Virus record (IMG/VR): IMGVR_UViG_3300001598_000043
Coordinates: 1-64,000 of that record
DNA: 64,000 nt
Strand: one strand, 5' to 3'
Origin: a virus
Lineage: Duplodnaviria; Caudoviricetes
Part shown: in pieces, positions 2,252 through 11,732 of the stretch
How positions within the stretch are numbered: position 1 is the stretch's first letter
How the letters are laid out: each line of letters opens with the position of its first letter
Position numbers and translations under genes: made by a program
The notes under the pieces: model-generated
The model's input: the letters and a program-made list of their open reading frames with translations, nothing else
What the model was told of the DNA's origin: nothing
Database searches by the model: none

Positions 2252-2926
2252 TTACTTTTCTTTTATGAATTGAAATCCATAATCCTTTGCATTCTTATCA
2301 AGCCATTTTATCATATTACTGTTTAAAGTCTTTAATAGTGGTTGTATCTCTTTCTGATATGTGGCCTTATCAATCTTGCCATACTTATAATCTTTGTCCA
2401 ACTTATTCCACTGTGATTCTATAGGGGTATATACTTTGTCATATGCCTTGCTATATGCATTTGTGAACTCTGTTGGCTCATATTTACTTGTCCAATATTG
2501 CTCTTTTTCAAGTTCACCAGTTAGACTGTTCATTATGTATGTATTACTACTAATAGGTTGTTGTCTTACAAGTCTAAATGCACTGAATTCTGACCCTTTT
2601 GGTAATACTGCTGCCTCAGACTTATTTTCCAATGATACCATAGCATCAATATCCTCTGGACTAAATATAGTGGCCTCTGGATGGTTGTGTGTTACGTGAA
2701 CTGTACCACCATTCCATATTAACTGTTCTACCTTGTGATTGAATTCTGCATCATCGTCAATGTAATCAACGTGGTCTTTGTCTCCTGTGGCCTTTACAAG
2801 TGTATTACCATTCTCGTCCATCCAATATATTGTCTCTTTGTCATCATCACGTATAGAATTCTCTATACGTTTTTGATTATCTGGTATTTTAAACTTACTG
2901 ACCGTTGTTGTGCCTGTTGCTCCCAT
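2252..2926 (-). CDS. MGATG-leader protein with JAB/MPN-like domain
   Basis: Upstream Glu (KET), HNHP and FSPED match the JAB E...HxH...SxxD metal motif. Confidence 0.6.
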   Translation of the reverse strand: MGATGTTTVSKFKIPDNQKRIENSIRDDDKETIYWMDENGNTLVKATGDKDHVDYIDDDAEFNHKVEQLIWNGGTVHVTHNHPEATIFSPEDIDAMVSLENKSEAAVLPKGSEFSAFRLVRQQPISSNTYIMNSLTGELEKEQYWTSKYEPTEFTNAYSKAYDKVYTPIESQWNKLDKDYKYGKIDKATYQKEIQPLLKTLNSNMIKWLDKNAKDYGFQFIKEK

Positions 2927-2927
2927 A

Positions 2928-3668
2928 TTACTTCAATCTCTCCTTTAACACTTTTACAATCTCTTGCGAATATTTGTTTGACTTCTTACCGTTTGCAATA
3001 TAGTCTGCAACTGCTTCTGCCATAGTCTCTGAATAGTTAGGATTATCGTTCTTATTGTGTATAGCCGCATAATGTGATATATGTCCTGCCATATTCTCCC
3101 ACTTATCCCCTAAATTACTTGCGGCTTGTTTAACTATATCTTCTGGTATCTTACCCATTAATGCATCTATCTGTTTTTGGTATGATACAATACTTCCATC
3201 ATGTTTTATTTGACTCTGCATTAAATGACGTTCTAGTGCATGTGTCAATTCGTGAGATATTACTGATGTGTAATCTGTTCCTTGTGGGTGTAGTGATGTT
3301 AATACACCTGCGTACCATTCTTTATGCAATGTTTTATCATATATGCTCTTATCCAATGCTTTTGGCCCAATTAGTATATTATTCACATCATAATCATATT
3401 TTGCCGCAAATCCAGCATCATCTAACTTCTTTGTCATAACATCATCGGCTATGTCTAATGATACGTGTAAATCTTTCAATATTGGAAATTCTTGTGACAT
3501 CTTCTCAAGTGTGTTTGTAAGTTCTTTTATCTGTTTTGATGATAAATCTTCCATCCCACTGTGATATGTTCCATCATCCTGTTCATCCATTGATATATTA
3601 ACACCTAAATTATGCCAGTGTTGTCGTAATTCTTTAAATGACATTGTTTTTGTGCCAACTGCTCCCAT
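2928..3668 (-). CDS. MGAVG-leader zincin metallopeptidase-like protein
   Basis: HELTH (HExxH) plus downstream ETMAEAV third-ligand motif. Confidence 0.7.
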   Translation of the reverse strand: MGAVGTKTMSFKELRQHWHNLGVNISMDEQDDGTYHSGMEDLSSKQIKELTNTLEKMSQEFPILKDLHVSLDIADDVMTKKLDDAGFAAKYDYDVNNILIGPKALDKSIYDKTLHKEWYAGVLTSLHPQGTDYTSVISHELTHALERHLMQSQIKHDGSIVSYQKQIDALMGKIPEDIVKQAASNLGDKWENMAGHISHYAAIHNKNDNPNYSETMAEAVADYIANGKKSNKYSQEIVKVLKERLK

Positions 3669-3678
3669 TCAATACTCC

Positions 3679-4182
3679 TTATTTTTTAGGGAAATATCCC
3701 CACTCTTGAAAACTATCTCCTGCCCATACTACTGTATCTGCTGGCACTGTTGCTTTTACTATGATATAGTTACCATTTAATGCATTCATGCCGTGTTTAT
3801 CTGCGTATGCTTTGCTTAATGTTACCCATGCACCATTTGGAATTGATGGTGTATAGTCTTTAGATACTGCTCTATAGATAGTAACCATCTTTTTGCCAAT
3901 TTGGCTTGCACTTGCACTGTCTCCATCATTACCATATGCGTCCTTGTATTCAGGAAATGACTTAAAATTGGCTGCCGTTGGTACTTCATCGTATCCCATA
4001 TCGTCAATCCAATCACTTGGTGACATAGGATTGTGACCTTCTGACATCTCTGCTACATCTGACACATTTATGCCTTTGGTCACATCTCCTGTAACTTCTA
4101 CAACTTCACCATTTTTATACTCTATCTCTCCACTTGTAGATATCACTCGTCTTCGTGTACTACTCTTGCCAACACTTCCCAT
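3679..4182 (-). CDS. MGSVG-leader protein with ADP-ribosyltransferase-like fold
   Basis: VTIYRAV (R), WVTLSKAYA (T/S) and QEWGY (E) in R-S-E ART spacing. Confidence 0.5.
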   Translation of the reverse strand: MGSVGKSSTRRRVISTSGEIEYKNGEVVEVTGDVTKGINVSDVAEMSEGHNPMSPSDWIDDMGYDEVPTAANFKSFPEYKDAYGNDGDSASASQIGKKMVTIYRAVSKDYTPSIPNGAWVTLSKAYADKHGMNALNGNYIIVKATVPADTVVWAGDSFQEWGYFPKK

Positions 4183-4184
4183 TA

Positions 4185-4313
4185 TTATTTGCCTTTCTTA
4201 CTTACGTGCATTGCTTGGCACTGTTTTGTGGCCTTTTTCTTGGCATCCTTGCTTGTATATTCCTTACCACTGCTGCCACATTTGTACCCTTTAGCTGTCT
4301 TCATAACTGGCAT
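4185..4313 (-). CDS. 42-aa basic protein, not in the ORF track
   Basis: MPVMKTAKGYKCGSSGKEYTSKDAKKKATKQCQAMHVSKKGK; AAGGAG RBS; stop 2 nt before the next start. Confidence 0.7.
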   Translation of the reverse strand: MPVMKTAKGYKCGSSGKEYTSKDAKKKATKQCQAMHVSKKGK

Positions 4314-10167: not shown

Positions 10168-10180
10168 AACACACTCCTAA

Positions 10181-10897
10181 TTAATTCTTTTTCTTTTTAC
10201 CTTTACTTTTACTAAATGACTGTTTCGTAGCTCGTCCAACCCACTGTGCGTTTACTTCTAAATGAGACGCTCCAAATCCATCTGATACACTCTTAACACT
10301 CTTTGGGTCAAACTTAAGCAGTGCATTATTGTTAAATAAAAATTCTTTTTCACCAGTACCAGCCCAACTTATAGGTGCAACAAAAGCTCCAGCTCCCTTT
10401 GAAGGTGGTACTGTTATATGAATAACTAATCCTGAATTTGCACCATATGTAGTACTGTTACTAGCGGCCGCTGACAAGAATCCATCGTTTTGAATTATTC
10501 CACCGTTCTTAACTATTGCATCTTTTAACTGTTGTTCTGTCATTGAACCACTTTTCTTACCAAGTAGTTTAAAATCACACTTTCTAACAACTTCAATGGC
10601 TTTCTTTAATTCAAATTTTGATAAACCGTTGTATAAATCAGATAATTCTTTCTTCTGACTTGCTGACATATCATCCCAGTCTGTACCATATAAAGCATCA
10701 TTCATACTATAATATCCAGAACCAGTATAATGGTCTAAAGCTGCCTTTTCATCATCTGTTAAATTATCTGCCCATTCAGTAAAATTTGATAGTTTCTCAT
10801 TTTTGAACCATTTAATTGTACTGTTAACATTATCAGTAAAATGTGTTATTTTTCCAATATCTTTACTTGCGTATTTACTTCCACCAGTTGCACCCAT
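10181..10897 (-). CDS. MGATG-leader ADP-ribosyltransferase (VIP2/C3-like)
   Basis: YTGSGYYSMNDAL, VVRKCD (R), GFLSAA (S), GEKEFL (ExE). Confidence 0.82.
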   Translation of the reverse strand: MGATGGSKYASKDIGKITHFTDNVNSTIKWFKNEKLSNFTEWADNLTDDEKAALDHYTGSGYYSMNDALYGTDWDDMSASQKKELSDLYNGLSKFELKKAIEVVRKCDFKLLGKKSGSMTEQQLKDAIVKNGGIIQNDGFLSAAASNSTTYGANSGLVIHITVPPSKGAGAFVAPISWAGTGEKEFLFNNNALLKFDPKSVKSVSDGFGASHLEVNAQWVGRATKQSFSKSKGKKKKN

Positions 10898-10907
10898 TGA
10901 TTAACTC

Positions 10908-11060
10908 CTATTTCTTTTTAGGTTTTGATTTAGCTACTGATATAGGTTTATTTGCAAATTCAATTTCATCAATATTAACAAATCTACCTAAACCACTTGT
11001 AGTAAATCTTTCTGTTGCTGATTTTCTTGTATTTTTCTTTGTTTCTCTCTTAACTGCCAT
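10908..11060 (-). CDS. 50-aa Lys-rich protein, not in track
   Basis: MAVKRETKKNTRKSATERFTTSGLGRFVNIDEIEFANKPISVAKSKPKKK; AGGAGG RBS. Confidence 0.7.
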   Translation of the reverse strand: MAVKRETKKNTRKSATERFTTSGLGRFVNIDEIEFANKPISVAKSKPKKK

Positions 11061-11072
11061 TATCTTATCCTC

Positions 11073-11732
11073 CTACTTTTTAAAGATTTGGTCTTTACTC
11101 TGACCAACCCACTCCATAACTACTTTAATTGGATATCCTGGTTTTTCAGGTTTACTTACTTTCTTAACTTTAAAGAATGCATTGTTATTAAGTAAAAATT
11201 CTTTTTCACCAGAATCATAATAACTTAAACCTTTCTTACCTACATAAGCACCAATACCTTTACCTTTAGGTAACTTAAATGCTATTTTTACATCTGTACC
11301 CTCTGTTCCATATTGAGCACCAGCCTCACTTATTGCTGATGTAGATAAAAATCCATTATTATGTAGTGTCTTACCTTCAAATTCTTTAATCTGTTCGTAT
11401 GTCATACCGTCTCCACCAAATATTTTTGTATCTGCATTTCTATAGACTGTAATAGGTTTCTTTAATTCGTAATCACTCAATGCATCATATAATGCTGATA
11501 TCATTGGTTGGTCGAATACACTAATATCATCCCATTTTGTGTCATATATCTTTGCAAAATATCCATCATATTCCATATCAGTGAAATCCTTGATGGCATC
11601 GTGTTCCATTGATGTCAACTTATCTTCCCATTTTAACTGATTTGAATTATTTGCATCGTCAAACCAATTAATTGTCTCTGATACATCACTACTAAATTGT
11701 TTAGATGTCTCTGTTATTCCTGTAGCACCCAT
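11073..11732 (-). CDS. MGATG-leader ADP-ribosyltransferase (VIP2/C3-like), paralogue of 10181..10897
   Basis: VYRNAD (R), GFLSTSA (STS), GEKEFLLNNN (ExE). Start reassigned to MGATG at 11732, 1 nt after the upstream stop. Confidence 0.82.
   Translation of the reverse strand: MGATGITETSKQFSSDVSETINWFDDANNSNQLKWEDKLTSMEHDAIKDFTDMEYDGYFAKIYDTKWDDISVFDQPMISALYDALSDYELKKPITVYRNADTKIFGGDGMTYEQIKEFEGKTLHNNGFLSTSAISEAGAQYGTEGTDVKIAFKLPKGKGIGAYVGKKGLSYYDSGEKEFLLNNNAFFKVKKVSKPEKPGYPIKVVMEWVGQSKDQIFKK

Follow-up and report, generated by a model that had tools for sequence, protein, structure and literature searches.

A five-residue N-terminal tag on packaging-region proteins of a tailed phage, and a QatC/Cap9/QueC-like enzyme as its candidate partner

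Nine genes around the terminase share an N-terminal tag

The DNA considered here, termed the window, comprises the first 64,000 bases of a phage record (IMGVR_UViG_3300001598_000043; Caudoviricetes) that is 79,686 bp long and rated as 100% complete. Nine minus-strand open reading frames (ORFs) surrounding the two terminase genes begin with a peptide of the form MG[AS][TV]G, referred to here as the tag, and a gene encoding a QatC/Cap9/QueC-like enzyme is found in the same window. The nine ORFs had been listed in an initial annotation based on the sequence alone, and each was found in place with the start peptide described. The relevant features are the following.

2252..2926, minus strand: tagged effector (MGATG), 224 aa, JAB/MPN-like motifs read by eye
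2928..3668, minus strand: tagged effector (MGAVG), 246 aa, zincin-like HExxH motif read by eye
3679..4182, minus strand: tagged protein (MGSVG), 167 aa, phrog_2579 domain
4439..4912, minus strand: tagged protein (MGAVG), 157 aa, no domain assigned in Pfam and PHROG scans
5261..6568, minus strand: terminase large subunit, terL (PF04466)
7097..7678, minus strand: terminase small subunit, terS (PF03592)
7857..8369, minus strand: tagged protein (MGAVG), 170 aa, singleton with no domain assigned
8388..9149, minus strand: tagged effector (MGATG), 253 aa, papain-fold glutamine deamidase (PF15644, E 2.1e-10)
9448..10167, minus strand: tagged effector (MGATG), 239 aa, ADP-ribosyltransferase (ART)-like, R/STT/ExE motifs read by eye; phrog_14952
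10181..10897, minus strand: tagged effector (MGATG), 238 aa, Alt/VIP2-type ART (PF03496, E 2.2e-18)
11073..11732, minus strand: tagged effector (MGATG), 219 aa, ART (PF03496, E 1e-19)
11816..12160, minus strand: conserved core gene that in relatives borders the tagged array on its upstream side (homologue in 19/19 relatives)
14600..15526, minus strand: N6/N4-methyltransferase-fold partner, overlapping the QatC-like gene
15477..16538, minus strand: QatC/Cap9/QueC-like PP-loop ATP pyrophosphatase, predicted reader and modifier of the tag (from motifs, structural model and co-occurrence)

Genes for a scaffold protein, a short MuF2 and an integrase-family protein lie outside the window in the same genome, while those for portal and capsid were placed by gene position alone, as a Pfam scan gave no match for either.

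The statement that no other gene starts in this manner holds for the whole genome, in which MG[AS][TV]G begins 9 of the 135 called genes; a scan of the long ORFs of all 79,686 bp for G[AS][TV]G returned the nine starts and one internal match, in a tail protein. The same start was absent from all 1,103 genes of 11 related genomes lacking the QueC-like gene. Codons 2-5 vary synonymously, as had been described, and past codon 5 the DNA cannot be aligned by eye. The proposal that selection acts on the peptide, and that the tag is a module borne by exchangeable effector domains, is supported.

The domains originally assigned behind the tag fared less evenly. Pfam confirmed the papain-fold protein (start at 9149) and the ARTs starting at 10897 and 11732. 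The reading frame of the last ORF extends for another 16 codons upstream of this start (TTG at 11780), and its ribosome-binding site is weak. For the JAB-like (2926), zincin (3668) and ART-like (10167) proteins, motifs could be read by eye but Pfam gave no confirmation. The first of these presents E, HNHP and FSxxD in alignment and found no match in a PDB search, the second contains HELTH and reached Peptidase_M48 with an E of 0.016, which does not pass the cut-off, and the third belongs to a tagged family of 12 proteins. An ART-like assignment for the protein starting at 4182 was not confirmed; it matches phrog_2579, 'ParB C-terminal domain' (E 3e-18). In a homologue search with the protein starting at 8369, the sole match among nine candidates was the protein itself.

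Outside the window, a Minor_capsid_2-like gene of the tail region (genome 68903-69280; L542:903-1280) starts MGAFG and could bring the number of tagged proteins to ten. Its positional counterpart in G051 starts MGSRV, and most others have no MG start. Within the window, positions 25023-25853 encode a microbial-type ADP-ribose glycohydrolase (PARG; PF10021, E 1e-25), with homologues in only three of 19 compared genomes, all of them tagged and ART-carrying. Such a protein could shield from the phage's own ARTs or counter ADP-ribosylation by the host.

The tag recurs across relatives

Tagged proteins were gathered from terminase-centred loci (80 + 80) and from enzyme-centred loci. In this manner, the tag was found on 78 distinct proteins in 38 families, with the consensus MG[SA][TVRSI]G; seven MGAVS ORFs lacking a ribosome-binding site were dropped, as were MGAVK, MGAVS and MGSRV starts from the family tally. 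The commonest starts among 77 representatives were MGSTG (18), MGSVG (13), MGSRG (9), MGSIG (8), MGATG (7) and MGSSG (6). The strict five-residue form first proposed is accordingly too narrow, since MGSRG, MGSSG, MGSIG and MGAT(A/Y/F) are also found. In an alignment of 75 of the 78 proteins (the L063 and L066 ORFs and one near-duplicate being omitted), M1 and G2 are invariant by selection of the rows and G5, while not absolute, is kept in at least 90%; about half of residues 6-20 are Ser, Gly, Thr, Lys or Asn.

As predicted, tagged genes of relatives cluster at the packaging genes, with varied domains behind the tag. The 75 proteins scanned include 13 ARTs and two deamidases, PHROG matches include minor head and head-associated or virion families, and at least 59 of the 75 have no Pfam family at E 0.001, bar a weak VapB-like match in two. 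One subclade presents a single conserved tagged protein of 146-158 aa before terS (L458:2980-3432 and 11 homologues), which is missing from the enzyme-negative G091. Searches of isolated phages by tblastn with the proteins starting at 10897, 2926 and 3668 gave no matches. Judged from these sequences, the tag is real, selected and apparently undescribed: literature searches returned no description of it or of a phage QatC-like system, although the supplementary family tables of PMC13329287, PMC9503650 and PMC5512222 might list them.

Tag and enzyme gene occur together

The census of co-occurrence covers 38 records with a completeness of at least 85%; the enzyme gene is present in 12 of them (seven found via terL, one via the tag, three via the enzyme and one being the seed genome) and absent from 26. 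Naive Fisher tests, one of which counted 25 negatives in place of 26, disregard kinship and were given no weight. All 12 enzyme-positive genomes are tagged, including three that first seemed tag-free and each of which has a single tagged gene just before terS, as opposed to 0/26 enzyme-negative genomes with a tagged ORF in the packaging region. In 15 of these 26, tags were judged from terL flanks of at most 8-10 kb together with a whole-record MGxxG pattern, by which tags lacking Gly5 would be missed. In one negative genome, G049, a gene that by eye resembles a repressor starts MGASG; it lies about 12 kb upstream of terL. Records of lower completeness were left out of the census, among them G071 (60%), which has tag and enzyme, and G085 (54%), which has a degenerate enzyme and no tag. 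No enzyme was found in three others of this kind, namely G073 (75%; tagged), G045 (62%; an MGSSA ORF) and G086 (48%; an MGANG ORF).

Among the 135 genes, only 15477-16538 is present in all eight enzyme-positive and absent from all 11 enzyme-negative whole genomes. Because the enzyme gene itself defines these groups, the informative part is that the tags track this gene and no other. Portal, scaffold and capsid homologues are common to tagged and untagged phages. MuF was rejected as receptor of the tag, as no homologue exists in 6/8 tagged whole genomes. The earlier suggestion that the tag system replaces a MuF fusion is not supported in that form; the present genome keeps a short, unfused MuF2. 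The methyltransferase is disfavored as reader, being present in 6/8 tagged genomes, with a radical S-adenosylmethionine (SAM) gene in its place in G011 and G041. The idea that tags replace a pyridoxal phosphate (PLP) enzyme was rejected, as G003 has both.

A terL tree implies four state changes, three of them forced by starred branches, and G091, placed within an otherwise positive clade, lacks tag and enzyme alike. The enzyme gene has tagged genes as immediate neighbors in about 10 different settings (L012, L201, L204, L214, L224, L226, L233/L257, L236, L237 and L256), and in L224 and L226 they lie between the enzyme gene and its radical SAM partner. The enzyme cassette is within the head module in G005 and G011; in many tagged genomes, it is part of the replication module and keeps its association with the tag over a distance of 4-16 kb. 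In L258 the enzyme is split and tags are absent; the fragments L206, L202, L209 and L175 are uninformative for the pairing. On this comparative evidence, the QueC-like gene 15477-16538 is a strong candidate for the partner enzyme of the tag, and what had been a minor alternative, namely that the tag routes proteins to a modifying QueC-like protein, is now the best-supported branch of the initial annotation.

The enzyme and its partner genes

The enzyme matches PF06508 with 23.6 bits (cut-off 22). In 120 homologues, SGGKDS is invariant, as are HPxKN, Asp194 and the Cys motif, a Zn-type motif in which C242, C269 and C272 are invariant and a fourth Cys, at position 275, is present in nearly all rows. 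The predicted structure (predicted local distance difference test score, pLDDT, 95.6) places the SGGxDS loop on a Rossmann-like core and its fold matches that of PP-loop enzymes, with Cap9 (9nto_B) as the top Foldseek match. VIA-align gave Z 15.5 with QatC (9y01_B; root-mean-square deviation 4.7, 269 aligned over residues 3-347), Z 15.1 with Cap9 (2.9, 176 aligned) and Z 14.4 with QueC (3.2, 184 aligned), and only QatC aligns over the full length of the enzyme, extensions included.

A tree of 35 members, from which six loci were omitted because no ORF could be extracted, places the tag-associated enzymes in one clade, together with five fragments of the same clade (SH-aLRT support 99). Two residues before Asp194, Gly or Ala is found in 22/22 members of this clade; in the 13 members outside it, the position is Trp or Tyr in 10 and Leu in three. 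Mapped by eye, this pocket position corresponds to the Tyr of the YPD of QueC, such that an aromatic residue appears replaced in the tag-associated clade, and Asp194 is the apparent equivalent of the base-reading Asp. The canonical QueC motifs YPDC, VPxRN and YxQxHxxE are not intact, with GGD(C/T/S), HPxKN and GINxxYxDE being present instead; the register of this by-eye mapping differed from that of BLAST. Searches for QueD (PF01242) and tRNA-guanine transglycosylase (TGT; PF01702) gave matches in 0/5 and 0/6 genomes, respectively (controls positive in 10 and 14 of 14), although a divergent DpdA could be missed and QueE and FolE were outside the scope of the search.

The enzyme gene is flanked by the clamp-loader and methyltransferase-fold genes. 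In other phages, a radical SAM gene replaces the latter, and a gene for a SAM-using enzyme, either methyltransferase-fold or PA0069-like radical SAM, stands beside the enzyme in nearly every long-enough locus. The wider enzyme family comprises 632 clusters and includes fusions to an N6/N4 methylase, a PLP enzyme and GNAT. These features suggest that the tag-associated clade derived from an ancestral pathway that modifies DNA or small molecules. The window also contains a PA0069-like radical SAM gene at 26970-27818, a distant relative (26%) of the radical SAM gene that accompanies the enzyme in other phages; close homologues of it were seen only in G003 and G032. In the isolated Staphylococcus phage Alsa_1 (L533:6663-8702), a methyltransferase gene is followed by a QueC-like gene that belongs to this wider family and is annotated in pieces.

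Comparison with known systems

Cap9 joins 7-carboxy-7-deazaguanine to Gly2 of a partner that starts M(G/S)G(G/S)GG (10.1101/2025.04.06.647259, Wassarman et al.). The partners of both Cap9 and QatC carry their start peptides on unstructured tails, with Gly2 as the site (10.1101/2025.04.06.647259, PMC13279940). QatB starts MGTS, and its Gly2 lies in the QatC active site and is essential (PMC13279940, PMC13376578, PMC13639016); modification of this Gly2 by QatC is proposed, the first substrate of QatC being left unresolved (PMC13279940).

The phage arrangement resembles Cap9-CdnD of type IV CBASS, an antiphage signaling system that uses cyclic oligonucleotides, in pairing a QueC-fold ATP pyrophosphatase with a partner that starts with Met-Gly and a small residue on a flexible tail. 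It differs in being encoded by a phage and in offering many unrelated candidate substrates rather than one nucleotidyltransferase of the cGAS/DncV-like type (CD-NTase). The phage enzyme is also larger than Cap9, with N- and C-terminal extensions, has Gly or Ala at the position of the base-stacking Tyr, and is partnered by a methyltransferase-fold or radical SAM protein, with no Cap10/TGT seen; no PF01702 match was found for a type IV CBASS Cap10, though Cap10 may be too divergent, and CD-NTase was outside this search. With QatC, the enzyme shares a full-length structural match that includes the extensions, a long-spaced Zn-type Cys motif and an HP motif, and with QatC-QatB an MGTS-like N-terminus on the partner proteins. 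Unlike QatC, to which it is 10% identical in sequence, it has neither a TxT pair nor RR after the Cys motif, the CGxCxxRR signature thus being absent. No QatA, QatB or QatD, as in qatABCD, was seen in a PADLOC scan of 10 proteins of the genome, and the candidate substrates are polymorphic effectors of a late operon. Canonical QueC and Gat-QueC share SGGxDS with the phage enzyme, as well as HPxKN (cf. VPxRN), an Asp before the fourth helix and a Cys-based Zn motif (PMC13329287). In contrast to these and to the MiCath locus compared, however, no QueD or TGT/DpdA-type gene was detected in the genomes searched; moreover, the glutamine amidotransferase domain of Gat-QueC is absent and GGD(C/T/S) stands in place of YPDC.

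The cargo recalls MuF toxins, where ART, metallopeptidase and papain-fold effectors are likewise found by packaging genes, and the accessible parts of these reports on MuF and head-packaged ARTs mention no shared tag or enzyme (PMC5576092, PMC9503650, PMC5512222). Stand-alone ARTs near terminase and portal genes have been noted and their packaging proposed (PMC9503650). Unlike MuF toxins, the phage effectors are separate ORFs with a common five-residue tag and no MuF fusion. Indeed, PF06152 covers residues 5-378 of the 396-aa MuF2 of this genome, which contains no fused toxin domain. In T4, a short N-terminal capsid-targeting sequence is common to unrelated internal proteins. The tag differs from it in sequence and in co-occurring with a ligase-type enzyme. 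In terms of sequence features, the phage system is neither a canonical QueC, nor a QatC by signature, nor a set of MuF toxins.

Other N-termini on the same domains

A homologue of the JAB-like protein starting at 2926, 43% identical and found in L495, has WITVNGHHVPIF as its N-terminus in place of the tag. Homologues of the zincin carry WxTxxGxHI N-termini, and homologues of the papain-fold protein likewise have a non-tag N-terminus. That the same domains stand behind another N-terminal motif in other phages argues that the N-terminus is an exchangeable addressing module. The motif W[IV]TxxG[RKN]H[IV] heads arrays of zeta toxin-like, zincin, JAB-like and papain effectors near terL (L315:10685-12360, L293:15724-19336, L495:8052-8777, L227:4990-5748 and L237:5785-8551), and G032 bears both this motif and MGSxG tags.

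At the same packaging-region sites, other phages contain DUF4417 genes (L355:2017-2706, L349:894-1541 and 2073-2723, L074:6900-7825, L459:9398-10791 and L535), which are immediately followed by genes with Gly-rich starts (MGGRG, MGSRG, MGGGG, MGGSS and xRGGKY). DUF4417 is present in 15/26 enzyme-negative versus 1/12 enzyme-positive genomes, although mutual exclusivity with the enzyme was lost once tested on the tree (median p 1). A single-sequence fold of DUF4417 reached a pLDDT of 37.5, a wide fold search gave Z <5, and PDB profile and Atlas searches returned nothing usable; a TGT-like barrel is a conjecture for this fold. From gene order and start peptides, DUF4417 and its neighbors are possibly a parallel enzyme-tag system.

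Proposed mechanism

The best explanation of these findings, given about an even chance, is that a phage QatC/Cap9-like ligase conjugates a carboxylate to Gly2 of many effectors, probably for delivery with the virion. That enzyme 15477-16538 acts on the tag at all is considered somewhat more likely than not, and the same holds for the tagged proteins being virion cargo, given their late-operon position and domain types. In bacteria, Met1 is removed before Gly, which would leave a free amine on Gly2, reached via the flexible Ser/Gly/Thr/Lys/Asn linker. As the enzyme family suggests, the ligase would adenylate the carboxylate and form an amide with this amine. One enzyme could thus serve many free-standing effector genes, any domain that gains the first 4-5 codons joining the system, and effectors bearing the modification would thereby be singled out to be packaged and delivered together with the DNA. 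The carboxylate substrate probably depends on the adjacent SAM-using partner, be it methyltransferase-fold or radical SAM. As no TGT/Cap10 or QueD is encoded in the genomes searched, the substrate is probably not handled as in CBASS.

In a bolder version, which is considered unlikely, the two enzymes of the cassette would link effectors covalently to the phage chromosome: a carboxylate-bearing group would be put on a DNA base by the SAM-using partner and the ligase would join Gly2 to it, or the reverse order would apply, such that tethered effectors would ride the DNA into the head and then into the next cell. An obstacle to this is that a folded domain of 15-28 kDa must pass the portal. A handle on DNA, derived from SAM, as the second half of the bond is similarly doubtful. 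On this reading, DUF4417 and its neighbors with MGGRG or MGSRG starts would form a parallel system.

To our knowledge, conjugation by the QueC family to an N-terminal glycine is known from only two bacterial defense systems, each with one partner. If true, a phage counterpart, for which dozens of natural substrates are interchangeable, would place the same chemistry on the attacking side, as a variant of known chemistry that would become categorically new should DNA tethering hold. The findings suggest that viruses have a means, not described before, of labeling their effectors and probably of loading them. The system would also address how selection is made among stand-alone terminase-side effectors, for which packaging has long been presumed. 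New effectors are predicted by the tag itself, and a five-residue substrate peptide with a neighboring enzyme would offer a simple route to the adduct.

Several observations weigh against the ligase reading. The independent contrasts on the terL tree (three on starred branches, four on the best tree) all agree, with a sign test p of 0.25; with only three independent pairs, significance is unreachable, each genome's tag label in this test was taken to be the same as its enzyme label, and a 20-genome terL tree is compatible with one origin. No MG[AS] ORF is present in L227, a 15-kb fragment running from the upstream marker gene as far as the capsid gene, although enzyme and partner are intact there and lie in the head module. 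Structure leaves QatC/Cap9 and canonical QueC unseparated (within about 1 Z), the nearest matches in isolated phages include Gat-QueC of deazaguanine-DNA phages, and the PADLOC scan of 10 proteins matched no QatC model, returning QueC only (E 2.8e-9). Outside the clade, the five-letter start is not specific by itself: scans that began from the tag gave 73 and 95 stretches, mostly of unrelated viruses among those listed (80 of the 95 in the second case), and of five records from these scans that were searched, the only near-complete one carried the enzyme. MGATG and MGSVG also start unrelated proteins of other viruses, which we take to be capsid-like for MGATG in L081, L086, L088, L123 and L148, small Gly-rich proteins for MGSVGK in L364, L374 and L395, and presumably tail-like in some cases. 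MGSRG starts, as noted, also come after DUF4417 genes. Finally, the wider enzyme family has ParB-methyltransferases, PLP enzymes, GNAT and SAM synthetase as neighbors, company that points to the modification of DNA or small molecules, and its distant loci showed no tags. A complex prediction for the enzyme (with ATP and Zn) and residues 2-33 of the protein starting at 10167 scored 0.02, which is evidence neither way.

Alternative explanations

The alternative that survives best, though improbable, is a non-covalent capsid-targeting sequence in the manner of T4, whereby portal, scaffold or capsid would be bound by the tag and the cassette would co-occur only through shared descent or linkage. 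It would account for the position of the array in the packaging region and for WxTxxGxHI on the same domains, for which no enzyme partner was found, and it draws on the few independent contrasts and on L227, with its enzyme but no tags. On the other hand, it must contend with portal, scaffold and capsid homologues that do not distinguish tagged from untagged phages, with a cassette that tracks the tag from 4-16 kb away, with the absence of both from G091 and with a pocket residue that differs in the tag-associated enzymes.

Alternatively, the QueC-like and SAM enzymes could form a DNA hypermodification pair, for example installing a carboxylate that is then amidated with a small amine, with the tag being a separate matter that binds modified DNA or sets N-terminal stability. 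This is judged distinctly unlikely. In its favor are the SAM enzyme paired in nearly every long-enough locus, the methylase, PLP enzyme and GNAT fusions, and the occurrence of the pair in distant phages where no tags were seen. Against this, the TGT and QueD results (0/6 and 0/5 genomes) argue that it is not the known deazaguanine-DNA route, and an invariant Gly2 on varying cargo, as well as tagged genes inserted beside the enzyme, would be left unexplained.

A prophage-borne, Qat-like defense in which the enzyme arms tagged toxins against superinfecting phages is very unlikely: the QatC-like architecture, toxin-type cargo and integrase-family gene would fit, but the tagged genes do not form a separate island, being interspersed among terS, terL and portal in the same orientation, and the 10 proteins scanned include no QatA/B/D-like model match. 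It is highly improbable that the tags are decoys that mimic QatB or CdnD N-termini to engage host QatC/Cap9 or drain their substrate; the motif does resemble MGTS and MGGS, but it tracks the phage's own enzyme and no host trait, and 38 different enzymatic or unknown domains would not be needed behind it. Barely credible is a neutral by-product, in which a duplicated 5' end (ribosome-binding site and first codons) was reused as a translation start, since, although codons 2-3 are GGA GCA in 6/9 genes, relatives encode Ser by both AGY and TCN codons, the upstream DNA differs, conservation across the 38 families is confined to the peptide and 26 sister genomes lack the tag.

Additional observations on the genome

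The only genome-contig matches were three contigs of metagenome-assembled genomes labeled Coprobacillaceae and Bacteroidaceae, too weak for naming a host. By eye, the DNA polymerase-like (38698-42045) and clamp-loader-like (17459-19251) genes look split by inserts that hold endonuclease-like ORFs (40048-40260 and 17943-18656, respectively) and are possibly introns or inteins.

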